Positions 2,993 through 13,914 of a stretch of 53,485 nt of DNA are shown here, piece after piece. Position 1 is the first letter of the stretch. The number at the start of each line of letters is the position of its first letter. Source of the stretch: Actinomycetota bacterium (lineage in GTDB: Bacteria > Actinomycetota > Actinomycetes > S36-B12); contig JBJTBD010000054.1 of NCBI GenBank assembly GCA_046091195.1, positions 1 to 53,485 on the forward strand. Reading direction: 5' to 3'. A model generated the notes under the pieces. That model was not told where the DNA came from and searched no databases. It was given only the letters and a program-made list of their open reading frames with translations. A program made the translations under genes and the position numbers.

Positions 2993-3634
2993 ATGACCGA
3001 GGCGGCGCCGCGGGGGGCACGGCTTCCGCGCGAGCAGCGACGCGAACAGATCCTGGCGGCCGCCCGGGATGTCTTCGGGGGCAGCGGATACCACCCGACC
3101 TCCATGGAGGAAATCGCCGACGGTGCAGGTGTCACCAAGCCGGTTCTCTACCAGCATTTCGATAGCAAACTCGATCTCTATCTGGCGGTGCTGGACACCA
3201 CCATCGACGAACTACTTACCGCAACGGACATCGCCTTGCGATCCACATCGGACAACAAGTTGCGTGTACAACAGACGATGCGTGCCTACTTCGCATTCGT
3301 CGACTCGACAGACGGGATCTACCGACTCCTCTTCGAGAGCGACATCATCGGTAACGACGACGTCCGTATTCGCGTCGACCGGGCCCATGCCGAAGTCGCC
3401 CGGCGCATCGCGGCGGTCATTGCGGAGGACACTGACCTCGGTGAGTCGGAAACCCTGTTGCTGGGATCTGCCCTGCAGGGATTGGCCCAGGTGGCCGCAA
3501 CCCGCTGGATCCGCGGCCATGCCGGTCCGATGGATCGCGATGAAGCAGCGGACCTCGTCGCCGCCCTCGCCTGGCGCGGTATACGCGGCTTCCCGTTAAG
3601 CCACCCTCGTGAGGATTCCCCCGACGCTTCCTGA
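2993..3634 (+). CDS. TetR/AcrR family transcriptional regulator
   Basis: N-terminal HTH SMEEIADGAGVTKPVLYQHFDSK; conserved C-terminal AWRGIRGFP; adjacent to DUF3107. Confidence 0.92.
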   Translation: MTEAAPRGARLPREQRREQILAAARDVFGGSGYHPTSMEEIADGAGVTKPVLYQHFDSKLDLYLAVLDTTIDELLTATDIALRSTSDNKLRVQQTMRAYFAFVDSTDGIYRLLFESDIIGNDDVRIRVDRAHAEVARRIAAVIAEDTDLGESETLLLGSALQGLAQVAATRWIRGHAGPMDRDEAADLVAALAWRGIRGFPLSHPREDSPDAS

Positions 3635-3667
3635 GACCATGGTGCTCCCCAAGTGTGAGGATCTGTA

Positions 3668-3895
3668 GTGGAAATCAAGATCGGTGTCCATGACCACCCG
3701 CGTGAGTTGACCATCGACAGCGAGGAGTCGATCGAGGCCATCGAGAGTCAGGTGCGTGCCGCTATCACCAAGGGTGATGTCCTACGTCTCGCAGATTCCA
3801 AGGAGCGCACCGTGCTGGTCCCCGCGGAAAAGATCGCGTTCGTGGAAATCACCCCGACCACGCGTGGTCGCGTCGGATTCGGGTCTCCGGCTTAA
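3668..3895 (+). CDS. DUF3107 family protein
   Basis: MEIKIGVHDHPRELTI...KIAFVEI...GRVGFG; usual position between TetR and the ferritin-like gene. Confidence 0.85.
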   Translation: MEIKIGVHDHPRELTIDSEESIEAIESQVRAAITKGDVLRLADSKERTVLVPAEKIAFVEITPTTRGRVGFGSPA

Positions 3896-4581
3896 GCGGC
3901 AAGCCCCATCTCCGCCATCCGGCGCGAGTGATTCTCAGTTAAGCGCGCCAACATACGACCGATCTCGGCCAAGTCTGCGCCCGGCCGATCCACGCCTCCG
4001 ACAAGCAGGCTCGACAGCGCATCGCGCTCCGCGGCGACGCGTTGCGCCTGGGATAGTGCTTCACCGACGAGCCTGCGACCCCACAGAGCGAGCCGGCCGG
4101 CTACCCGTGGATCCTCATCGATCGCCGATCGCACCGCATCGACGATGAAGACCGCCTGACCCAGGTCCTCGCACACCCGGAGCACCAACTCCCGCGTCTC
4201 GGGATCGAGGCGGACGGCGATCTCCCGGTAGAAGTCCAATCCGATCCCATCGCCGACATACGCCTTGACCAGGCCCTCGAGCCAGTCACTTGGCTTGGTG
4301 TGTGCATGGAAGTCATCGATCGGCGTGCGGAACGGCTCCATCGCGACGAGAGGGTCGACTCCGAGATCCCTCAACCGTCGGCTCAACTCCTCGTAATGAC
4401 GGAACTCCGCCGCGGCCATGCCGGAGAGGGCAACCGTGTCCGCCAAGGTGGGAGACATCGCAGCGTCGGCCGCGATCCGCTCGAAGGCGCTTAACTCTCC
4501 ATAAGCGAGGACACCAAGGAGGTCGACGACGGCGGCCCGATACTCCGGATCGTCCTGCAGGAGTTCCACCGATACCGACAT
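3892..4581 (-). CDS. Ferritin-like fold (MiaE-like) protein
   Basis: LGVLAYGELSAFER, WLEGLVKAYVGDG, LALWGRRLVGEALSQ; divergent from the DEAD helicase; TAGCCT-N8-ATG start at 4581. Confidence 0.85.
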   Translation of the reverse strand: MSVSVELLQDDPEYRAAVVDLLGVLAYGELSAFERIAADAAMSPTLADTVALSGMAAAEFRHYEELSRRLRDLGVDPLVAMEPFRTPIDDFHAHTKPSDWLEGLVKAYVGDGIGLDFYREIAVRLDPETRELVLRVCEDLGQAVFIVDAVRSAIDEDPRVAGRLALWGRRLVGEALSQAQRVAAERDALSSLLVGGVDRPGADLAEIGRMLARLTENHSRRMAEMGLAA

Positions 4582-4678
4582 GGGTCGTAAGGCTAGTGGG
4601 GCCACCGGGTACAGTGAAGTCAGCACAATCGTGCATGACGCCGCGCGACACTCACCGCGCGAGAGACTTGGAGAAGTT

Positions 4679-6121
4679 CTGAGCACAGTTGACCCCACCT
4701 CGGCCCCCACGTTCGCGGAACTCGGCGCCGAGAAGTCCATCGTCGAGGCCCTGGCAGCCGATGGCATCGAATACGCGTTCCCGATCCAGCAGATGTGCAT
4801 GGCACTGGCCCTCGAGGGCAAGGATCTGATCGGACAAGCCAAGACCGGCACCGGGAAGACACTCGGATTCGGGATCCCGCTGCTTCAACGCTTGACCTCA
4901 CCCCTTGCACCCGAGTACCCGAGCGAGCCAGGCGTCGGGGCACCTCACGCCCTCGTCGTCTGCCCCACACGCGAACTATCCCTGCAGGTAGCCACCGACC
5001 TCGAGCGCGCCGGTCGCATCAAGGGCATGCGTGTTCTCGCGATCTACGGTGGCCGTGCCTACGAGCCCCAGATAGACGCGCTCACGGCCGGCATCGATGT
5101 GGTGGTCGGAACACCCGGCCGCATCATCGATCTCGCAACACGCGGATCACTCGTGTTGAGTCACGTGCGCGTTCTCGTTCTCGATGAAGCGGACGAGATG
5201 CTCGACATGGGATTTCTTCCCGACGTCGAACGCATCGTCGACCTCCTTCCCACGGAACGGCAGACGATGCTGTTCTCCGCGACGATGCCCGGGCAGATCG
5301 TTGCTCTCGCGCGGCGCTACATGCGACAACCGATCCACATCCGCGCATCGGAACCCGGTGATGACAACGCGACAGTCGACGCCATCGAACAGCATGTGTG
5401 GCGAGCACATCCGATGGACAAGGTGGAACTCGTCGCGCGGATCCTTCAAGCAGAGGGACGACACCTCGCGATGATCTTCACGCGCACCAAGCGCAAGGCG
5501 CAGAAGATCGCGGACGAGCTCACCGAGCGTGGCTTCGCCGTCGGCGCCGTGCACGGTGACCTCGGACAGGGTGCCCGCGAGCAAGCGTTGCGCGCCTACC
5601 GCTCCGGCAAAGTAGATGTGCTCGTCGCAACGGACCTGGCCGCCCGCGGCATCGACGTCGACGACGTGACGCACGTGGTCAATTACGAATGCCCGGATGA
5701 TGAGAAGACCTACCTCCACCGGATTGGGCGGACGGGCCGCGCGGGGGCCTCCGGCGTCGCCGTGACGCTCGTGGATTGGGAAGACGTGGCGCGCTGGCAG
5801 ATGATCGATCGCGCACTCAAGTTGCCTTTCAAGGATCCGATCGAGACGTACTCGACAAGCGAGCACGTCTATACGGGCTTGAAGATCCCGGCGGGAACCA
5901 CCGGCACACTGCCCAAGGACAAGCGGACCCGCGCCGGACTCACGGCCGAAGCCGTCGAAGACATCGGTGAGACCGGGAAGAAGTCGGGCAAGGGTCGTGA
6001 CAAGCCGAAGCGCCCATCGGAACAGCGCGCGAAAAGCGAGCGCCCACGTGAGGACCGGGAGAAGAAGTCCAAGCGCCCTCGCCAGCGAACCCGCAAGGGT
6101 GAACCGGTTTCAGGCCAGTAA
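4679..6121 (+). CDS. DEAD-box RNA helicase (RhlE-like); start uncertain, CTG 4679 preferred
   Basis: Q motif (FAELG...PIQ), AKTGTGKT, PTREL, DEAD, SAT, HRIGRTGR, and a basic C-terminal tail. Confidence 0.93.
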   Translation: MSTVDPTSAPTFAELGAEKSIVEALAADGIEYAFPIQQMCMALALEGKDLIGQAKTGTGKTLGFGIPLLQRLTSPLAPEYPSEPGVGAPHALVVCPTRELSLQVATDLERAGRIKGMRVLAIYGGRAYEPQIDALTAGIDVVVGTPGRIIDLATRGSLVLSHVRVLVLDEADEMLDMGFLPDVERIVDLLPTERQTMLFSATMPGQIVALARRYMRQPIHIRASEPGDDNATVDAIEQHVWRAHPMDKVELVARILQAEGRHLAMIFTRTKRKAQKIADELTERGFAVGAVHGDLGQGAREQALRAYRSGKVDVLVATDLAARGIDVDDVTHVVNYECPDDEKTYLHRIGRTGRAGASGVAVTLVDWEDVARWQMIDRALKLPFKDPIETYSTSEHVYTGLKIPAGTTGTLPKDKRTRAGLTAEAVEDIGETGKKSGKGRDKPKRPSEQRAKSERPREDREKKSKRPRQRTRKGEPVSGQ

Positions 6122-6880
6122 CGCTGCGGCGAGTTCGCGATAGGCACGGGCGGCGGGACTCCCCGACGCGGTGGCCAAGATCGTCCGTCCCGTTGCCGGA
6201 GCTTCCGCGACGCGCACGCTTCGGGGAATCGGTGCGAGCACGGGCACGTCGTAGCGCTCGGCGAGATCATCGCGAATCGCCCGCGCATGCAGCGACCGTC
6301 CGTCGTACAGGGTCGGGAGGATGCCGACAACGCGCAGATCAGGATTTGCCCACCGCTGCACCTCCGCCACCGCCTCCATCACTTGACCCACTCCGCGGTG
6401 GGACAGGGTCTCGCAATGAACAGGGATGAGGACGTCGTCGGCTGCGACGAGCGCGTTGATTGTCATGATGCCCAAGGACGGCGAGCAATCGAGAATCACC
6501 CAGTCGTACTTCCCGCGGTGCAAGGCCACGAAGTCGCGCACAAGTCTCTCCCGTCCCGATCTCGCCGCGAGCGCATGGTCCGCACGGGCAAGGTCCGATG
6601 TGGCGGGGAGTAGATCCACACCCTCGGCCGTGCCGATGATTCGCGCGGAATCACCCAGGAACGGTGTGGCATCGCGTGGGACATCCTCGGGATCGATACC
6701 CAACGAGAAACTCGCGCACGCCTGCGCATCGAGATCGAGAACGAGCACACGCTTTCCTCGCTCAGCCAACGCGGACGCCAGGGTGATCGACGTGGTCGTC
6801 TTCGCGACCCCGCCCTTCTGGTTGGCAATCGCCAGCACCCGTGCACCCTCGAGCACGGCGGGGCCCTCTCCGAGCGGCAT
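6110..6880 (-). CDS. ParA/Soj family ATPase (orphan)
   Basis: Deviant Walker A NQKGGVAKTT, DLDAQA, DCSPSLG; translationally coupled to the upstream membrane gene. Confidence 0.9.
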   Translation of the reverse strand: MPLGEGPAVLEGARVLAIANQKGGVAKTTTSITLASALAERGKRVLVLDLDAQACASFSLGIDPEDVPRDATPFLGDSARIIGTAEGVDLLPATSDLARADHALAARSGRERLVRDFVALHRGKYDWVILDCSPSLGIMTINALVAADDVLIPVHCETLSHRGVGQVMEAVAEVQRWANPDLRVVGILPTLYDGRSLHARAIRDDLAERYDVPVLAPIPRSVRVAEAPATGRTILATASGSPAARAYRELAAALLA

Positions 6881-7761
6881 CAGGTTCGCGGTGGATCTTC
6901 GTGCTGGGTGCTCTCCGATGTCGGTGCTAGGGCATCGAGTCGCCGCAGGATCTCCTGCTGCTGCTTGATGACGTATGCCAGCCGCGCATCCGTTGTCGAG
7001 GTCTGCCGACTCGTGGACTTGCTAGAGCGGGAATCGCGCACCGCCCACGTGAGCAGTCCCCCGTAGAGAGCCCCCAAGAAAATGGCGCTCACGATCTGGA
7101 GAACAGTGACGATGATCTGACCCTCATCGGTCAGCGGAGCCCCCACCTTGAGTGACGTGAGGCGGAAGAGCGTGGCCACTGTGAACTCCGCAGCGGCTCC
7201 CGGCTGCGCAAGAGGAGCGTTCGGGTTTTGCGCCTCCGCACCAAGGAGAGCGATTGATCCCATGATGATTGTGCCTACCGACCCGAGGAGCACGAACATG
7301 AAAACTTGGCCTGCCGAGATGCGTCGCAGTTGGAGCACGTACCCCACAACCAGGAACACGATCGCGAGGCCGGGGAGGTTGATGAAGATGGGCAGGGGGG
7401 CCAGAAGCATCGCAACATCCGACATCCGCACCAGACGCGACTCCTGAGTGCGCCGCCGATGGATGATGTCGAGGATCATCGCGGCGAGGATCACTGCCCA
7501 CATTGCGGCGAGGATGATCCAGAGCACCGTGCGCCCGACGTCGTGAACGGGGACGAACGCCAGCCACGTGACGATGAGCCCGTATGCCATGGACTTCGTG
7601 ATCGCCCGCATCACCACGAACCAGGTGGGAACGGGAATCGGGAGCGCGGCCTCCGCGGCAAGTCGGGACCGAATGCCGGAGGACTGCGCGCGCTGGTCAC
7701 CAGGCTTCCGGGCTTCACCGTCCGTCGGTGGAGTCGGCGGGCTCACATCGGGCTCGGACAT
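6880..7761 (-). CDS. Multi-pass membrane protein resembling a 6-TM potassium channel but lacking the TVGYG filter
   Basis: About 6 hydrophobic segments. The region GSIALLGAE...P.A.L...TVAT...PLTDEG...LLTWAV aligns by eye to the KcsA pore domain; C-terminal coiled-coil-like helix. TAACCT-N6-ATG start. Confidence 0.6.
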   Translation of the reverse strand: MSEPDVSPPTPPTDGEARKPGDQRAQSSGIRSRLAAEAALPIPVPTWFVVMRAITKSMAYGLIVTWLAFVPVHDVGRTVLWIILAAMWAVILAAMILDIIHRRRTQESRLVRMSDVAMLLAPLPIFINLPGLAIVFLVVGYVLQLRRISAGQVFMFVLLGSVGTIIMGSIALLGAEAQNPNAPLAQPGAAAEFTVATLFRLTSLKVGAPLTDEGQIIVTVLQIVSAIFLGALYGGLLTWAVRDSRSSKSTSRQTSTTDARLAYVIKQQQEILRRLDALAPTSESTQHEDPPRT

Positions 7762-7816
7762 ACACCAAGGTTAGTGTGAGCAACCCGATTCCATGGATGT
7801 TCAACGAGAGGCGTGA

Positions 7817-8614
7817 ATGGTGGCAGACGAGGACCGTCGCGGCTCACTGACAGCCGTCGGCTCGGGCATTAAATCCGTGGCACACCTGACACTCGAAGCA
7901 CAAGCGCATATCCGCGCCGCGGACATGGTCTTGATCTGTGCGGCTGACGCTGTCACCGACGGCTTCATTCGCGATCTGAACCCCCGGATCGAAGACCTGC
8001 ACGTCTATTACGGCCAGGATCGCCCGCGCCGAGAGACGTATCGCGCTATGGCGGATCGGATGGTCTGGCACGTCTGTGAGGGGCGTGAGGTGGTCGTGGT
8101 GATGTATGGGCACCCCGGTGTCTTTGTGAACCCCACATTCGTTGCCATCCAAGAACTGCGCGACCTGGGGTACCCGGCCCGCATGTTGCCCGGGGTTTCC
8201 GCAGAGGACTGCCTCATCGCGGACCTCGAGGTGGACCCGGCGGCCCACGGTCTCCAGACCTACGAGGCCACCTTCTTCATCACGCGTGCGGTGACCATCG
8301 ATATCCACGTCCCCCTCATCCTGTGGCAGGTGGGGTTGGTGGGAGACCACGGGTTCAACCGCGCCGGCTTCGACGGCCGACACCTGGACCTGCTCATCTC
8401 CCGGCTTGTGGAGCTGTACTCGCCGGAGCACGAGGTGGTCATCTACGAGGCCGCGCAGCACCCCCTGGCCCACCCGCGAGTCGTGGTGCGCCCCGTGGCA
8501 CAGGTGCAGCAGGCCGACCTCACCGCGATTTCCACGATGTTCATCCCGCCGTTGGGCGCACCCCCACCACAATCGGATACCCTCGCAATACTGCGTGAGC
8601 GCGACGGAGAATAG
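7817..8614 (+). CDS. Borosin-type SAM-dependent peptide backbone alpha-N-methyltransferase (TP_methylase fold, stand-alone)
   Basis: GSLTAVGSGI, YY.....R...Y (Y65/R71/Y75), YGHPGVFVNP, MLPGVSAEDCLIADL..DP, WQVGLVG, HEVVIYEAA, STMFIPP: the motif series of OphMA/SonM as I recall them. SD GAGAGG upstream. Confidence 0.9.
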   Translation: MVADEDRRGSLTAVGSGIKSVAHLTLEAQAHIRAADMVLICAADAVTDGFIRDLNPRIEDLHVYYGQDRPRRETYRAMADRMVWHVCEGREVVVVMYGHPGVFVNPTFVAIQELRDLGYPARMLPGVSAEDCLIADLEVDPAAHGLQTYEATFFITRAVTIDIHVPLILWQVGLVGDHGFNRAGFDGRHLDLLISRLVELYSPEHEVVIYEAAQHPLAHPRVVVRPVAQVQQADLTAISTMFIPPLGAPPPQSDTLAILRERDGE

Positions 8615-8643
8615 GCACGTCGACGTCTGTGAAGGAGAGCACC

Positions 8644-9258
8644 ATGTCGGTCACCACCGTGGAAGAGTTCTTGATCAACACGTGCCTGGACGCCCATGCC
8701 CTTCGGGATGCCCAGAGCGATCTCGCCACGGCACTGGCGCAGGCCGGAGTGCCCGACACAATCGCACCGCTGATTGCGAGCGGACGCGGGCCCGCGATCT
8801 CGGCCGCCGTGCGCGCCACTCGCCCACAGCCAGCCGCCGCAGAGATCGAGACTTACGCCCAGGAGCGCGCGGCCGTCGATCCGATCTTTGCTATGCGTCT
8901 GCGGGATGAACCCCGCCCCACCCTCGAGCGCGCATTCCTGGTCACATTCCCCTCGACGCGCACCGTGGAGTCAGAGGACATCGACGGCACAGTGGTGGTC
9001 CGAGTCTTCGACCGCCCCGGTAGGTCCGGACTTTCGGCACCGCAGTCGAGCGCGGATCCGGATATTGATTTCGTCGGTCCCGGAGATGTCGATGTGGACG
9101 TAGACATTGATATTGATGATGTCGTGGACGTCGAGACTATCGAGACCGATACGGATATCGATATCGATGATGTCGTCGATTCGGCAGCACCGGCCTCCGC
9201 GCGGTGGACGACGTACTGGAGTAACCGTCGGGCGCACTGGATCAGCCTGGGGGCATGA
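8644..9258 (+). CDS. Putative split-borosin precursor: BBD/LigA-like domain + NHLP-like leader + Asp-rich core + aromatic tail
   Basis: SD AAGGAG 6 nt before ATG 8644, 29 nt after the methyltransferase stop. N-terminal VEEFLINTCLD...ALAQAGV...IASG; middle ERAAVDPIFAMRLRDEP; core DVDVDVDIDIDDVVD. Confidence 0.8.
   Translation: MSVTTVEEFLINTCLDAHALRDAQSDLATALAQAGVPDTIAPLIASGRGPAISAAVRATRPQPAAAEIETYAQERAAVDPIFAMRLRDEPRPTLERAFLVTFPSTRTVESEDIDGTVVVRVFDRPGRSGLSAPQSSADPDIDFVGPGDVDVDVDIDIDDVVDVETIETDTDIDIDDVVDSAAPASARWTTYWSNRRAHWISLGA
9103..9180 (+). repeat. Two copies of a 27-nt / 9-aa unit (DIDIDDVVD) in the precursor core, at 9103-9129 and 9154-9180
   Basis: gac att gat att gat gat gtc gtg gac versus gat atc gat atc gat gat gtc gtc gat: 5 differences, all synonymous third positions. 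Confidence 0.9.
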
Positions 9259-10078
9259 CCTCCTCGCGCAGCGCCGCCCACGGGCGCGCCCGCTCGTGGC
9301 CGCGTTGACCCGCCGGACAGATCTCGAGGAATTCACAGTAGGAGCACAGTCCGCTCGGCCTCGCAGGAAACACTTCCTCGACGACTTCGTCGACGATCCC
9401 CTCATCGACCGCAGCGAGGGTGTCTTGTGCGCGTCGGATGTCCTCTGCCGCTGATTCCACGCGACGTAGGTGCTCCTCCAGGGATGCGTCGGAGTGCTCC
9501 CAGGAGACCACGGTGGCGCTGGGGATGTGGTGCAGTTCCACCGTCGTGCAGGCCTTCTTCAGCGTGCGGTGCACCATCAGGGCGTACAACGCCAAAGCCT
9601 CGGCCGACCGGACATCATCTGAGGTCGGGACATCGCGTCCCGTCTTGTAGTCGACGACCACATATCGACCATCCCGTTCGTCGATACGGTCGATGCGTCC
9701 CTCGATAACGAGGGTGTCGGTCACGAATCCCAGGGTCCTCTCCTGGCTCAATGGCTCCTGGCGGGGATCGACCTCGCTCAGATAGGCCCGCGTCATCGCT
9801 ATTGCCCGGGTACGCCACTCGTCACTGTGCTCCGCATCGCGGAAACCGGCGGGAATCCACGCGGACTCCAGGACAGCGTGGATTGCATTCGGCTGCCGCT
9901 GGTCGACCGGTAGATCCCACCAACCCCTGAGCGCGTTGTGAATCGAGATACCGAAGTTCGTATGCGCCCAACTGAGGCGCGGCACGCGCGGACGCTGGAT
10001 GTATCGGAACAGGAAGGCACGTGGACAGTTGTGCCACGCTGCGATCTTGCTCGGGGACACCTTCAGGCGCGTGGACAC
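9242..10078 (-). CDS. PD-(D/E)XK / RecB-family nuclease with 4-Cys Fe-S motif
   Basis: SPSKI...CPR, GRIDRID, VDYKTG, QL-equivalent ALALYA, C-terminal CSYCEFLEICP. Confidence 0.88.
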   Translation of the reverse strand: MSTRLKVSPSKIAAWHNCPRAFLFRYIQRPRVPRLSWAHTNFGISIHNALRGWWDLPVDQRQPNAIHAVLESAWIPAGFRDAEHSDEWRTRAIAMTRAYLSEVDPRQEPLSQERTLGFVTDTLVIEGRIDRIDERDGRYVVVDYKTGRDVPTSDDVRSAEALALYALMVHRTLKKACTTVELHHIPSATVVSWEHSDASLEEHLRRVESAAEDIRRAQDTLAAVDEGIVDEVVEEVFPARPSGLCSYCEFLEICPAGQRGHERARPWAALREEVMPPG

Positions 10079-10087
10079 CGTTGGAGC

Positions 10088-10516
10088 CTACGACTGATGC
10101 AGGAATCCGTTGTCTCGTAATCCCCAGGAATCCAGGGCCTCGATGAGACCCGGGCTGGTATCCCAGTGTTCGAGGTCTCGTAGGGGTACCCACCGCGTGT
10201 CACGCGCATCGTCGCCCGCGCACAGTTCCCCCGAGAGCACGGAGACCAGGAAGTCGCGGATCACGTAGGTCCCGCCCGAGGGAACTTCGCGACGCACGGT
10301 TCCCACCTCACGCTCGACCTGCACCGACAGCCCGGTTTCCTCCCACACCTCACGCACCACGGCGGCGGTGGCAGACTCGCCAGCCTCGACCCGCCCACCG
10401 GGCAGCGACCACAGACCCTCGGCCGGTGGTTGACCTCGAAGGATGAGCAGAATCCGGTGCGCATCGTCGATGCACACCGCGCCCACGCACGGAATCTCGA
10501 TTTCCGTGCCGTCCAT
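10088..10516 (-). CDS. NUDIX hydrolase
   Basis: Nudix box GGRVEAGESATAAVVREVWEETG; AGDDA; start at ATG 10516 after TAGCAT-N7. Confidence 0.9.
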   Translation of the reverse strand: MDGTEIEIPCVGAVCIDDAHRILLILRGQPPAEGLWSLPGGRVEAGESATAAVVREVWEETGLSVQVEREVGTVRREVPSGGTYVIRDFLVSVLSGELCAGDDARDTRWVPLRDLEHWDTSPGLIEALDSWGLRDNGFLHQS

Positions 10517-10550
10517 GTGGTGGATGCTAGTGACGCCGTAGGTTTCTCGG

Positions 10551-11759
10551 ATGGCGTCACGGGCCCGCCTTGCGGTCGCACTCTTGTTCTTCGCCAACGG
10601 GATGTCCCTCGCGACCTGGGTGCCCCGCCTGATCGACGTGCAATCACGTCTCGGTATGTCCGATGCGACGGTCGGTGTGGTGCTGGCCGTGGGCGCCATG
10701 GGTGGTATCGCCTTCGGGCTTGTTGCAGGACGGGCCAGTGCTCGCTGGGGAAGCGGCCGGGTCGCGGTCGTCACGATTCTGCTGTTCGCCCCGGTGGCCC
10801 CATTGATCGCGCTCGCGCCCTCTCCCTGGATCCTTGCCGTGATCCTCGCCTGGATGATGGGCATGGATGCGATCTCCGACGCAGCCATGAACGCCCACGG
10901 AATCCGAGTCCAGAAGTTGTACTCGACATCGATCCTCAATTCCTTCCACGGCTATTGGTCCCTGGGCACGGTCATCGGCGGCGCGATCGGCGCGGGCAGC
11001 CTGCTCATTGGCGCACCGTTGCTTCCTACGCTGATCTTCTCCGCGGCCATAGCCGTGCTCGCGACAGTCATCGCGTCACGCAATCTGCTCCCGGGCTCCG
11101 ATCCCGATACCCATCTCGACGAGGAGGACGTGCCGTCCTTCGCTGATCCCGGTTCCGTCGGTCAGCGCTTCCGTGTCGCCTCCCTCAACCCCCTCACGTT
11201 CATGCTCGGGATCTTCACGCTGCTCGCGGTCTCCGTGGAAGAGATTCCTCCCCGGTGGAGTTCCATCTACCTTGGATCGATCGGGGTCGACGAACAGTTC
11301 GTCGGCATCGCCTTCGTGGCGTTCACCATCGCGATGATGGCGGGTCGATTCACCGGTGATCGCTTGGTTGATCGGTTTGGCGAAATCACGGTGGTACGCC
11401 TCAGCATGGTGGCGGCAACGGTGGCGCTCCTGCTGGGATTGCTCAGCTCGTCCCTCATTGGCTTCACCCTCGCCTGCATCGTCACGGGGTACGGGATCGC
11501 GACCCTCTTCCCCGCCGCGATGCGTGCAGCAGCGCACATCCCGGGGATCCGCCCGGCATCCGGTGTCACCGTGGTCAGTTGGCTTGCGCGCTCCGGCTTC
11601 TTCATCGCACCGCTGATCGTAGGATTCGTCGCCGAGTCCGCAGGTCCCGGCTGGGGCGTCGCCTGCGCAGCCGCAGCCGCGGCCGTCATCATCCCGATGG
11701 CAGCCGTACTTAAATCGGGCTCGACTCCGTCACCGCGCGCGGTGAACTCGACCGGATGA
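10551..11759 (+). CDS. MFS transporter
   Basis: About 12 TM segments, motif-A-like GDRLVDRFG, DAAMNAHG...ILNSFHGYWSLG. Confidence 0.9.
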   Translation: MASRARLAVALLFFANGMSLATWVPRLIDVQSRLGMSDATVGVVLAVGAMGGIAFGLVAGRASARWGSGRVAVVTILLFAPVAPLIALAPSPWILAVILAWMMGMDAISDAAMNAHGIRVQKLYSTSILNSFHGYWSLGTVIGGAIGAGSLLIGAPLLPTLIFSAAIAVLATVIASRNLLPGSDPDTHLDEEDVPSFADPGSVGQRFRVASLNPLTFMLGIFTLLAVSVEEIPPRWSSIYLGSIGVDEQFVGIAFVAFTIAMMAGRFTGDRLVDRFGEITVVRLSMVAATVALLLGLLSSSLIGFTLACIVTGYGIATLFPAAMRAAAHIPGIRPASGVTVVSWLARSGFFIAPLIVGFVAESAGPGWGVACAAAAAAVIIPMAAVLKSGSTPSPRAVNSTG

Positions 11760-12618
11760 CGATCACGAGTCCTGCGAAGATCAGCGCCATGGCGGGATAG
11801 ACCGCGAGTGATGGAATCTGGCCGAGGAAGATCGCGGCGATGATGGTTGCTCCGGGCATCTCCAACAGGATGGCCAGCGAGACGACGGTGGCGGGGGTGG
11901 TCGCCAGAACCTTGTTCATCAATGTGTGTCCCAGCAGCTGCGCGCCTACGGTGATGGCGAGGATCATCAGCCACGCCTGTGCACTGAATCCCACGAAGGG
12001 CTGACCTGCGATCAGCGCAATCGGGATGATCGTTATCGCCGATGCGAAATAGAGCATCGACGTCGTGGTTGCTGTCGGGACCGTCTGTCGAACACGCTCA
12101 GCCACGGTGACATACGCAGCCGCGAGTACAGCGGAGATCAAGGCCAAGGCATCACCGATCAATGCGCGTGGCTCGATGGAGAAGTCAATCCCACCGAGGA
12201 GGAGGATTCCCGCGAAAGCGACAACGATCCCCATCCACACGGTCCGTGGAACACGGATCCCGAGCGCGCGGGCGATCACCGCGGCCCAGATCGGTTGGGT
12301 GGCGACGAATGCTGTCGACGACGCGATCGACGTGAGGGTCAGAGAGGGGATCCATGCCGCGAAGTGGAGGCCGAGGAAGACCCCCGCGATCACCGTGAGC
12401 CGAATCTCCCGCCGGTTCAGGGAGGTCACTGCGGCGCGCTCGCGCACCAGCACGAAGACCCCCGTCACGCCCCCGGCGATGAAGCAGCGCCAGAAGGCGA
12501 TGGCCAACGGTGCGGCGGCGGTGGCGACGATCAGGGGACCGCTCAGGGCGATGAACACGATGGCCACGGAGAGGCGCGCCAGGTCCGCCGCCGGGGGGCG
12601 CGTGATGACCTGATTCAC
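11710..12618 (-). CDS. DMT/EamA family transporter
   Basis: Two repeated EamA halves, IAFWR, GDALAL, LLEMPGA. Confidence 0.88.
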   Translation of the reverse strand: MNQVITRPPAADLARLSVAIVFIALSGPLIVATAAAPLAIAFWRCFIAGGVTGVFVLVRERAAVTSLNRREIRLTVIAGVFLGLHFAAWIPSLTLTSIASSTAFVATQPIWAAVIARALGIRVPRTVWMGIVVAFAGILLLGGIDFSIEPRALIGDALALISAVLAAAYVTVAERVRQTVPTATTTSMLYFASAITIIPIALIAGQPFVGFSAQAWLMILAITVGAQLLGHTLMNKVLATTPATVVSLAILLEMPGATIIAAIFLGQIPSLAVYPAMALIFAGLVIVIRSSSPRAVTESSPI

Positions 12619-12657
12619 GTGTGACTCCTGAGCAAGATGCGGGAGTAGCCTTCCCGC

Positions 12658-13914
12658 GTGACGGTGCCGGTGCAGCAGAGGGTATTCCTGGCCCGCCTGG
12701 GCGGGATGGGCGTCTTCGATGCCCGCGGCGACCAGGTGGGCAAGGTGCGTGATGCCATCGTCGTGATGCGGGTCGGCAATCCTCCCCGGCTCACCGGCCT
12801 GGTCATCGAGGTGCCTCCCCGTCGTCGCATCTTCGTACCGATGACCAAGGTGAGTGCCATTGACGTCGGCCAGGTCGTGGTCTCGGGAGCGCTGAACCTG
12901 CGTCGATTTGAGCAGAGGTCCAACGAGACGCTTGTCATCGCCGAACTCCTGGACCGCAACGTAACTCTTGTGGAATCGGATGAGCGCGTGACGGTCCTCG
13001 ACGTCGGAGTCGAATTCACGCGCACGCGCGAGTGGCTGGTCAGCCAGATCTTCGTGCGTCGTGGTGGCGGCGGTCTCCGGCGTCGCGGTGAGAAGTTTGT
13101 TGTGGAGTGGGATGAGATCACTGGCCTGTCACTCCCCAATCCGCAGCAACCTGCGGAACTCTTGATCGCCACCCTCGACAACATGCTCGCCGCAGACGTC
13201 GCGAGCGTCCTGCACGATCTCCCCACCGCCCGCCGGCTCGAGGTGGCTCGGTCCCTTGACGACGAGAGGCTCGCCGACATCCTCGAGGAGCTTCCCGAGG
13301 ATGACCGCGTCGAGATCATGCAGCAACTGGAGGCTGAGCGAGCTGCCGACGTGCTCGAAGAGATGGACCCCGGCGACGCGGCGGACCTGATCTCCGAACT
13401 GCCACCCGACACCGCCGAGTTGCTGCTGGATCGGATGGAGCCCGATGAGGCGGAGGACATTCGCCGCCTGCTCACCTACGACGACTTCTCCGCGGGCGGC
13501 ATGATGACGACCGAGCCCGTGATCCTCCCTCCGGATGCGACCGTGGCGGACGCGTTGGCCCAGGTGCGCAATGCGGACCTGTCCCCCGCACTCGCCTCCC
13601 AGGTGTACGTGTGTCGTCAGCCGACGGAGACCCCGACGGGCAGATATCTCGGGACCTGTCACTTCCAGCGGCTTCTGCGCGAGCCCCCGTCGACTCTGGT
13701 CTCCGCGGTCCTCGACACCAACCTCGAGCCGATGACACCCGGTGCACCACTCTCCGAGGTCACCCGCTCGTTCGCGGCGTACAACCTGGTGGCACTCCCC
13801 GTCGTCGATGACGCAGGCCATCTCGTGGGCGCCGTCACCGTCGACGACGTCATCGACCACATGCTCCCCGAAGACTGGCGCGAGTCCCTCACCCCGGGGG
13901 TCGGAGATGGCTAG
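12658..13914 (+). CDS. PRC-barrel + MgtE N-terminal + CBS domain protein
   Basis: N-terminal GDQVGKVRD, acidic helical repeats (ADVLEEM.P..AADL), SAGGMMT, and CBS motif LVGAVTVDDVIDH. Confidence 0.88.
   Translation: MTVPVQQRVFLARLGGMGVFDARGDQVGKVRDAIVVMRVGNPPRLTGLVIEVPPRRRIFVPMTKVSAIDVGQVVVSGALNLRRFEQRSNETLVIAELLDRNVTLVESDERVTVLDVGVEFTRTREWLVSQIFVRRGGGGLRRRGEKFVVEWDEITGLSLPNPQQPAELLIATLDNMLAADVASVLHDLPTARRLEVARSLDDERLADILEELPEDDRVEIMQQLEAERAADVLEEMDPGDAADLISELPPDTAELLLDRMEPDEAEDIRRLLTYDDFSAGGMMTTEPVILPPDATVADALAQVRNADLSPALASQVYVCRQPTETPTGRYLGTCHFQRLLREPPSTLVSAVLDTNLEPMTPGAPLSEVTRSFAAYNLVALPVVDDAGHLVGAVTVDDVIDHMLPEDWRESLTPGVGDG

Follow-up and report, generated by a model that had tools for sequence, protein, structure and literature searches.

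A split-borosin locus with a putative multidomain precursor and a channel-like partner gene in a freshwater actinobacterium

What is made by a stand-alone methyltransferase gene that Pfam places among the tetrapyrrole methylases, when the gene directly after it encodes a protein that matches no known family and carries a long acidic repeat? This question is raised by a segment of about 2.42 kb, at positions 6845-9263 of contig JBJTBD010000054.1 (assembly GCA_046091195.1), in the genome of a small freshwater actinobacterium; the window, i.e., the whole stretch of DNA that we analyzed, covers positions 1-53,485 of that contig. A preliminary description, made from the sequence letters, read the two genes as a minimal split-borosin cassette, i.e., a peptide-backbone methyltransferase with a separately encoded precursor, inserted into a housekeeping backbone. 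Backbone N-methylation is prized in peptide drug design, and to our knowledge borosins are the sole known ribosomal route to backbone N-methylated peptides, with few bacterial borosin systems having a known product or function. We find that the split-borosin locus at 6845-9263 is real, and that the novelty of the system lies in the architecture of its putative precursor (PreA) and in its gene partnership with a channel-like membrane protein (TM293). We consider it probable that the three genes form an accessory split-borosin module, in which the methyltransferase (NMT) methylates the acidic repeat of PreA.

The methyltransferase NMT and its family

Two open reading frames (ORFs) are listed for the pair, at 7817-8614 (+ strand, ATG start, 265 amino acids), which encodes NMT, and at 8629-9258 (+ strand, GTG start, 209 amino acids). 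Read from an ATG at 8644, the second ORF encodes the 204-amino-acid PreA (8644-9258, + strand), and we chose this start over the upstream GTG at 8629 because all 17 homologues aligned with PreA (17/17) begin at the equivalent of the 8644 ATG, with the consensus M-[ST]-V-T. The gap between the two genes is 29 nt (8615-8643), and each start is preceded by a purine-rich site resembling a Shine-Dalgarno sequence, namely GAGAGG, 5 nt ahead of the NMT start (7817), and AAGGAG, 6 nt ahead of the PreA start (8644). The ORFs, the spacer and the two ribosome-binding sites of the preliminary description were all recovered at the positions it had given them.

Pfam assigns NMT to TP_methylase alone (PF00590, E 7.6e-17; 62.4 bits, with the cut-off at 27.8), its best NCBIfam match is YabN-like (1.6e-9), with CobI and others also matching, and relatives are annotated as “YabN” or “precorrin methylase.” Taken at face value, these names would make NMT a tetrapyrrole or rRNA methylase of the ordinary kind, followed by an unrelated hypothetical ORF. 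However, all of the NCBIfam matches fall far under their cut-offs (37 bits vs 525), and a search of all PDB chains gave dbOphM (3.6e-60, 207 bits), OphMA (2.6e-59), SonM (1.4e-46, 162.5 bits) and MroMA (5e-42, 147.5 bits), with the top 25 distinct PDB sequences all being peptide alpha-N-methyltransferases and row 26, the best tetrapyrrole methylase, being a precorrin-2 methyltransferase at 1.3e-3 and 21.6 bits.

Alignment with dbOphM by HMMER is gap-free over NMT residues 5-106 and places Y65, R71, Y75 and Y97 on residues 66, 72, 76 and 98 of the dbOphM chain, so that the catalytic correspondence proposed for Y65/R71/Y75 is borne out. As residues 5-259 of NMT align with residues 6-264 of the 386-amino-acid dbOphM chain, i.e., with its methyltransferase domain only, NMT has no fused binding domain. 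In 30 relatives (40-80% identity), R71, Y75, Y97, G98 and H99 are invariant, as are E130, D131 and C132, and Y65 is conserved in at least 90%. Every enzyme motif named in the preliminary description is present: GSLTAVGSGI at 9-18, Y65-x5-R71-x3-Y75, YGHPGVF at 97-103, PGVSAEDCLIADLEVDP at 125-141 and FIPP at 242-245. The BorosinMT detection rule, as given in the available text of the Imani et al. preprint, uses YGHP and DCL[F/I]AD motif blocks, and the corresponding blocks of NMT are YGHPGVF (97-103) and EDCLIADL (130-137), here checked as motifs and not with the authors' hidden Markov models. In SonM, the mutated residues described in the available part of PMC8429565 are Y58, R67, Y71 and Y93, to which we liken those of NMT by description and not through a residue-by-residue alignment.

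A FastTree phylogeny of 86 rows, built from 85 of the 120 listed relatives and two outgroup genes as a quick tree with long-branch warnings, places NMT within a 42-row clade (local support 97). This clade lies inside a 47-row clade (support 98) that also includes P0067, beside a group of four rows made up of the fungal P0120/OphMA, P0113/dbOphMA and P0136, plus P0115. The only two other TP_methylase genes of the same genome are very distant, on branches of more than 5 changes per column. As a coarse statement from this tree, NMT groups with the borosin enzymes, and nearer to the OphMA side than to the methylases of its own genome. By family membership, then, NMT is classed as a borosin-type alpha-N-methyltransferase and not as a tetrapyrrole or rRNA methylase, as the preliminary description had held and as its suggested check by profiles and phylogeny against the tetrapyrrole methylases now indicates. 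With the downstream gene also carrying a domain predicted to resemble the binding domain of a known borosin precursor (see below), we regard the reading as an ordinary tetrapyrrole or rRNA methylase as close to refuted.

The putative precursor PreA and its predicted binding to NMT

The gene downstream of NMT had been proposed as the precursor, and both its linkage and its predicted fold agree with that proposal. We sampled 25 metagenome loci, 12 with an NMT at least 61% identical to that of the window and 13 with one that is 36-48% identical. PreA is located immediately downstream of NMT at all 11 testable loci of the first group, the contig of the twelfth ending inside the enzyme gene. Likewise, the gene divergently upstream of NMT, which encodes the 293-amino-acid channel-like TM293 (6880-7761, - strand), is found in this position at 8 of 8 testable loci, with the other four having 71 nt or less of upstream sequence. 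The conserved unit therefore comprises three genes, and the “minimal two-gene” cassette of the preliminary description does not stand. None of the 13 loci with the more distant NMT carries PreA or TM293, with only 6 of these 13 having at least 1 kb of downstream sequence.

PreA has no match in Pfam or NCBIfam, in PDB sequences at E <= 10, or in Atlas, where its best score was 0.77. Its homologues form 22 clusters of 204-229 amino acids each, and a PreA profile run against 1.84 billion representatives found 27 proteins at E <= 0.001, of which 14 reached E <= 1e-10 and 6 reached E <= 1e-30, with the relatives found in this way being 185-267 amino acids long. The weak rows of this search (E 2.6e-6 to 9.5e-4) cover the acidic repeat only and mostly resemble translated microsatellites. 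An alignment of 18 PreA sequences contains 54 invariant columns, with 15 in residues 1-58, 29 in 59-125, 4 in 126-180 and 6 in 181-204, and this overall architecture is maintained down to 28% identity.

In the AlphaFold2 (AF2) model of PreA, with a mean predicted local distance difference test (pLDDT) score of 71.4, residues 1-122 are confident (block means 83-92) and fold into eight helices plus one hairpin, residues 127-179 have a pLDDT below 50, and residues 184-203 form a C-terminal helix. Examination of this model indicates two leader-like modules. The first is a five-helix bundle at residues 3-58 (8650-8817, + strand), which resembles the borosin-binding domain (BBD) of SonA, i.e., the precursor of the SonM system; VIA-align superposes it on the SonA BBD of 7ltr_I with Z 8.0 and a root-mean-square deviation (rmsd) of 1.4 A over 52/52 residues, three further SonA BBD entries give Z 7.7-7.9 (including 9ch7_H at 7.9 and 8t1t_D at 7.8), and SonA chains among the Foldseek rows have target TM-scores of 0.73-0.81. 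The second is a divergent domain like the nitrile-hydratase-like leader peptides (NHLP) at residues 61-131 (8824-9036, + strand), which is the most conserved part of PreA and which aligns with the proteusin precursor DprE2 (9cjx) at Z 8.0 and rmsd 2.7 A over 71/86 residues, with a second proteusin precursor (8tb1) at Z 5.6, and with the nitrile hydratase alpha chain at Z 3.2. Sequence profiles point to the same family. In a sample of 401 genomes of the phylum, the PreA profile caught three short ORFs over profile positions 53-127, and two that were scanned are true NHLP precursors by TIGR03793 (1.3e-21 and 1.2e-11); aligned by hhalign with a true NHLP precursor, the PreA family profile reached a probability of 94.4% (E 8.6e-8) over PreA residues 67-121. 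These two NHLP precursors belong to other Actinomycetota (L055, 1360-1716, - strand, and L056, 1408-1713, - strand; genomes G298 and G373), and in one of them a double glycine precedes a core rich in Cys. Inspection of the PreA family alignments found no conserved double-glycine site after the NHLP-like domain.

The C-terminal helix (residues 184-203; 9193-9252, + strand) is rich in Trp and Arg and follows the pattern R-W-x2-Y-W-x2-R-x3-W-x2-L, with W188, Y191, W192, R195, W199 and L202 invariant in the 18 sequences and with W192 and W199 remaining invariant down to 28% identity. The acidic low-complexity segment noted in the preliminary description is present, although that description had overlooked the two-module leader, of a BBD-like and an NHLP-like domain, and the conserved C-terminal helix. 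One further protein, P0155 (174 amino acids), differs in its N-terminal region and has a D-V repeat followed by a tail of the form F-W-x2-[FK]-R-x2-W; since its layout is the same, a Trp-rich tail after an acidic repeat may occur in a wider group of precursors.

A structure prediction of the NMT-PreA complex, which the preliminary description had suggested as a check, gave an ipSAE of 0.74 (0.73, 0.78 and 0.74 in the individual runs) compared with 0.00 for the best of three controls. The ipSAE mark is attained in 58 of 80 solved complexes, compared with 2 of 110 mismatched pairs, counts that are rough since own alignments were supplied; at least 53% of contacts agree between runs, and the partner pLDDT is at least 72. 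Confident contacts involve PreA residues 1-57, 79-99 and 184-203, and NMT residues 19-22, 44-53, 59-67, 77-84, 136-143 and 213-224, with the BBD-like residues of PreA touching NMT at 19-22, 44-53 and 213-224. By alignment offsets, the NMT loop at 213-224 is the SonM loop at 208-216, and it is around this SonM loop that the SonA BBD wraps, according to the available text of PMC8429565. The model supports the binding of PreA by NMT.

Between the leader-like modules and the C-terminal helix, PreA contains the putative methylated core, an acidic D-[V/I/T] repeat from D138 to D179 (9055-9180, + strand), in which Asp or Glu alternates with Val, Ile or Thr. Its length in the family is 27-79 residues, about half of them Asp/Glu, as isolated in 26 of 33 members by a crude regular expression that in the window and five close relatives also took in the preceding hairpin, that found no tail match in two members and that gave a match of only 3 residues in two. 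Near-identical strains differ in the repeat by one two-residue indel, the most distant members read V-E-V-V-E-V, and Tandem Repeats Finder reports only a weak 6-nt period at 9138-9168. At one locus of another genus (L029) the core consists almost entirely of (Asp-Val) units. A second, short acidic alternating stretch occurs elsewhere in the genome of the window (G000:C75:18557-18649, + strand, locus L053) and matches the PreA repeat only. The available text of the Imani et al. preprint describes D[V/I]D[V/I] repeats as backbone-methylated cores in borosin types VII and VIII, with methylation of acidic residues, by liquid chromatography-tandem mass spectrometry, and reports that the fungal type III has DVDVT repeats methylated on Val and Thr and that the type VIII core also lies in mid-protein. 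Because D[V/I] repeats are methylated cores elsewhere, the acidic segment of PreA would be a known kind of borosin core.

Several points nonetheless weigh against this reading of the locus. The linkage counts overstate independence, since the loci stem from few related lineages. Foldseek found no match for PreA at E <= 0.001, the best being a proteusin precursor at 0.11; TIGR03793 does not detect residues 61-131 even at E <= 10, for which reason we call the NHLP-like domain divergent; and a VIA-align Z near 8 can be reached by chance for helical models, according to the tool's own note. The VIA-align matches of PreA carry weight nevertheless, because they cover whole domains, because the BBD is a known partner of the enzyme family and because the NHLP match has independent support from sequence. 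The score of the complex model may reflect memory, since a like complex, SonM-SonA, has been solved, and the repeat (127-179, pLDDT below 50) lies outside the confident interface and was not placed in the active site. No protease or exporter is encoded within the cassette of the window. Finally, the Imani et al. preprint, in its available text, describes methylation spread across SurA, its predicted BBD included, and that of Lee et al. (preprint) describes a system of S. amazonensis in which the leader is methylated and in which a peptidase needs the methylated leader and frees an unmethylated core.

These last observations bear on where NMT would act. It might methylate PreA mainly outside the repeat, in the leader-like domains or at scattered acidic residues, with the repeat serving as a spacer or a cation-binding tail, and this would fit with the SurA and S. 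amazonensis cases, with the lack of a confident position for the repeat in the complex model and with the NHLP-like domain, and not the repeat, being the most conserved part of the protein. Yet it is repeats of this kind that are methylated in types III, VII and VIII, no other long disordered stretch of PreA could thread into an active site, and the repeat is retained family-wide as an alternating acidic/aliphatic run despite drift in length and sequence, so that we consider methylation mainly outside the repeat unlikely.

More improbable still is that PreA is a binding partner or regulator of NMT, with the true substrate encoded elsewhere or not a peptide. BBD-like folds also cap dioxygenase active sites, as described in the available part of PMC8429565, and a natural 74-amino-acid form, P0150, retains only the BBD and the C-terminal helix. 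P0150 is near-identical to PreA and lacks approximately residues 55-184, so that the BBD is joined in frame to the Trp-rich helix; it could be a real population deletion allele or an assembly artefact. Set against a role as partner or regulator, the repeat is present in every full-length member of the PreA family, the characterized enzymes of the NMT clade all act on peptides (as judged from PDB molecule names), and the genome (78.6% complete) yielded no second PreA-like gene, the sole other match being the 31-residue acidic stretch of locus L053 (E 5.7e-5).

With methylation of the PreA repeat as the preferred reading, the following steps can be proposed. The 265-amino-acid NMT would act as a SAM (S-adenosylmethionine)-dependent peptide-backbone (alpha-N) methyltransferase that docks on PreA, chiefly through the N-terminal SonA-like five-helix domain, with the NHLP-like domain and the Trp-rich C-terminal helix probably aiding docking. 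It would then repeatedly methylate backbone amides in the disordered D-[V/I] repeat (D138-D179), as in types VII and VIII, and the product would be a multiply N-methylated acidic segment, either freed by unlinked proteases or retained in the intact protein. Both the methylation of PreA and its site are, in this scheme, deduced by analogy with those systems.

Insertion of the cassette and the channel-like protein TM293

Our survey found NMT in 3 of 41 related genomes, i.e., in that of the window (G000), in a second genome of the same genus (G005, 100% identical) and in one of another genus (G017, 76%), and strong matches to TM293 (E <= 7.4e-100) occur in exactly these three, the next best match being at 4.4e-16. 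NMT was not found in the same-genus genomes G001 (97% complete), G002 (81%), G003 (89%) and G004 (99%). In a sample of 401 genomes of the phylum, full-length PreA was found only in G000.

In three of these congeners (G001, G003 and G004), a ParA gene directly adjoins a nuclease gene, within a conserved order of MiaE-like, DEAD helicase, ParA, PD-(D/E)XK nuclease, NUDIX, MFS and EamA genes, to which MgtE is added in G001 and G004, where the compared stretch extends to it. Since ParA abuts the nuclease in these three genomes, the segment at approximately 6845-9263 is an insertion, and in blastn comparisons with the unoccupied sites of two congeners (L024 and L025), homology resumes at 6844 towards ParA and at 9264 towards the nuclease. 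The inserted segment holds the three genes, and it also supplies ParA with a new start of 12 codons and the nuclease gene with a new 3' end. The flanking ParA/MinD-type ATPase (6110-6880, - strand; AAA_31, 2.4e-47) aligns with the ParA of the congeners over residues 13-242, and since its first 12 residues have no counterpart there, the insertion has re-made the ParA start. The stop codon of TM293 and the start codon of ParA overlap (ATGA, 6880-6883), and translation of ParA may be coupled to that of TM293. On the other side, the PD-(D/E)XK (RecB/Cas4-like) nuclease (9242-10078, - strand; PDDEXK_1, 7e-36), which is 70-72% identical in the congeners, gained its new 3' end through the insertion, and this end overlaps the 3' end of PreA convergently by 17 nt. 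The synteny check suggested in the preliminary description has thus been made, and it demonstrates an accessory cassette in a conserved backbone; that description was right to assign ParA and the nuclease to the backbone, but the “membrane gene” at 6880-7761, which it had also placed there, belongs to the inserted cassette.

In the other genus (L029, 2822-3451; L034; L002), the TM293-NMT-PreA trio is located between the DEAD helicase and ParA genes, i.e., on the other side of ParA, and in both genera the insertion sites of the trio are compact junctions in cassette-free genomes. A cassette without a match in 38 of 41 genomes could be an inactive remnant, but all three frames are intact, the active-site residues of NMT are invariant, and the cassette proteins diverge between the genera about as much as the backbone flanks do (76%, 60% and approximately 50% identity for the three proteins, compared with 76-83% for the DEAD helicase and 63-65% for ParA). 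Because this divergence resembles that of the flanking genes, the cassette genes look to be under constraint, and we give an inactive remnant very little credence. GC content is 0.62-0.68 over positions 3000-13000 with no step at the cassette, so that composition gives no sign of a recent foreign origin. In a repeat search of 6750-9360, no direct or inverted repeats bracketed the insertion at 6845 and 9263, and the other matches were short ones present in two copies. A scan for promoters and terminators returned no promoter-like site and a single terminator-like site, within parA, with no excess over shuffled sequences, and in the 55-nt divergent intergenic region between TM293 and NMT (7762-7816) it found no sigma-70-like site, that consensus being uninformative for the host phylum.

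Genes that could serve release or export of a product were found outside the cassette of the window. At locus L035 (1490-2059, + strand), of a more distant lineage whose NMT is 61% identical, a PreA-like gene runs 17 nt into the start of a gene for an ATP-binding cassette (ABC) exporter membrane domain (PF00664, 7.1e-17), at which the contig ends, a hint that the product may be exported there. The genome of the window encodes a C39-peptidase domain in a 780-amino-acid frame of a bacteriocin-type ABC exporter on another contig (G000:C45:46986-47369, - strand, locus L054). We rejected this transporter as a dedicated leader protease, as among five relatives compared it is present in G005, which has the cassette, and in G001, which does not, and was not found in G017 (which carries the cassette and is 88% complete), G003 or G004. 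We likewise rejected a frame of approximately 680-740 amino acids after the precursor gene in the other genus (L029, approximately 3492-5543, + strand; L002, 2386-4608, + strand), with a signal-peptide-like start and a weak Glyco_hydro_42 match, as a fourth cassette gene and treat it as a neighbor, since it is absent from the window.

TM293 has a channel-like build of 6 helices, but no Pfam family above cut-off (WLS-like_TM is sub-threshold at E 0.074) and no NCBIfam match. Its AF2 model, built from 19 sequences (pLDDT 72.8), consists of seven long helices and a short one resembling a pore helix, with a long C-terminal helix predicted at 255-278. The 46 Foldseek matches listed, down to rank 50, are without exception channels of the Kv, MlotiK1 or KcsA kind (best E 8.4e-4), Ion_trans/Ion_trans_2 clusters make up 29 of 30 matches in Atlas (score 0.92), and VIA-align superposes residues 148-249 on KcsA (5e1a_C) with Z 14.2 and rmsd 2.6 A over 101/102 residues. 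In these models, residues 147-249 (7015-7323, - strand) form an outer helix, a pore helix and an inner helix, i.e., a pore domain like that of the tetrameric cation channel superfamily. The selectivity-filter signature of K+ channels is TVGYG. By the offset of the KcsA alignment, TM293 would read L-T-S-L-K at this position, and the two filter glycines are absent in 19 relatives with the residue register taken from that alignment, from which we infer that the K+ filter signature is not kept. The S4 helix has just two adjacent arginines. TM293 therefore resembles KcsA and the 6-transmembrane, voltage-gated-like channels in its pore-domain fold, with the listed whole-protein matches being to Kv or MlotiK1, and it differs from them in matching no Pfam channel family at E <= 0.1 and, most likely, in its filter.

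Being divergently transcribed and co-inherited with NMT and PreA, TM293 most likely acts with the product, in export, in immunity or as its target, a role that we infer from the company the gene keeps. A more speculative arrangement, for which we see a slim chance, is that intact, uncut PreA serves with TM293 as a cation-binding or gating subunit, carrying a methylated poly(Asp-Val/Ile) segment that would resist proteases and not aggregate into sheets, and being tethered by its Trp/Arg-rich C-terminal helix. If PreA does act with TM293 in this manner, borosin-type methylation would tune an ion channel in a streamlined freshwater bacterium instead of giving a secreted natural product. More broadly, the constant linkage of TM293 within a cassette of 2.4 kb, in genomes of approximately 2 Mb, provides a lead on the function of acidic N-methylated borosins.

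Comparison with known borosin and leader systems

Borosin types 0-X have been listed, with a type XI added (Xu et al., PMC11395268, in its available text). Among these, a close layout is that of SonM-SonA from Shewanella oneidensis (type IV; 7LTC, 7LTR), which likewise has a stand-alone enzyme of approximately 260 amino acids and a separate adjacent precursor, with a five-helix BBD fold at the precursor N-terminus and docking, here predicted, through the equivalent enzyme loop. SonA consists of a BBD, a short linker and a C-terminal core that receives two methyl groups (PMC8429565, available text). It is, however, approximately 70 amino acids long, whereas PreA has 204 and adds an NHLP-like domain, a 42-residue repeat in mid-protein and a C-terminal helix, and by sequence NMT scores higher against OphMA (207 bits) than against SonM (162 bits). 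PreA therefore falls outside the narrow definition of type IV, i.e., a precursor of 50-100 amino acids with a C-terminal core, but the bare enzyme, the BBD-like fold of PreA and the complex model agree with the layout of those split borosins whose precursor carries the BBD (types IV, IX and X; “class 3”).

Types VII (AinM/AinA) and VIII and the fungal type III AboMA resemble PreA in their D[V/I]D[V/I] or DVDVT repeat cores. According to the available text of the Lee et al. preprint, types IV, IX and X have a precursor-borne BBD, and in types V-VIII it is the enzyme that carries this domain. The present locus differs from types V-VIII in this respect, with a bare 265-amino-acid enzyme and the BBD on PreA, so that of the features of types VII and VIII the D[V/I]D[V/I] repeat is present and the fusion of enzyme and BBD is not; the type VII enzyme, of more than 1000 amino acids, and the type VIII precursors, of approximately 600, are also unlike NMT and PreA. 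The fungal OphMA and dbOphMA (types I-II) are the closest solved sequences to NMT, with the same active-site residues, and P0120/OphMA is 44% identical to it. In these proteins the enzyme, the clasp/BBD and a hydrophobic core are joined in one chain that methylates in trans within a dimer, whereas the present locus splits these functions over two genes and has an acidic core.

Outside the borosins, residues 61-131 of PreA share the fold of the proteusin NHLP leaders (TIGR03793; DprE2 9CJX, 8TB1), with a profile alignment at 94.4%, but not a match to TIGR03793 itself. Unlike in proteusin systems, no radical-SAM or C39-transporter gene adjoins PreA, and the one C39 transporter of the genome is not co-distributed with the cassette. 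NHLP, nitrile hydratase and channels go unmentioned in the main text of the Imani et al. and Lee et al. preprints, whose supplementary datasets may list the enzyme family, and the literature that joins “borosin” with “NHLP” or “ion channel” apparently consists of reviews or unrelated studies.

The Lee et al. preprint, in its available text, places predicted type IV enzymes between the outgroups and the characterized borosins and names the SspM pair of Streptomyces as the closest of the split systems to the fused ones. The NMT-PreA family may be related to these intermediate type IV enzymes or to the SspM pair, and its OphMA-like enzyme domain, combined with a split layout in which the BBD is on the precursor, bears on the history of split and fused borosins proposed in that preprint. 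What sets the precursor apart is its design, in which a BBD-like and an NHLP-like leader module stand in tandem before an acidic repeat and a conserved C-terminal helix. Taken together, the family combines a gene split like that of type IV, a core like those of types III, VII and VIII, an enzyme domain near OphMA and two extra precursor modules.

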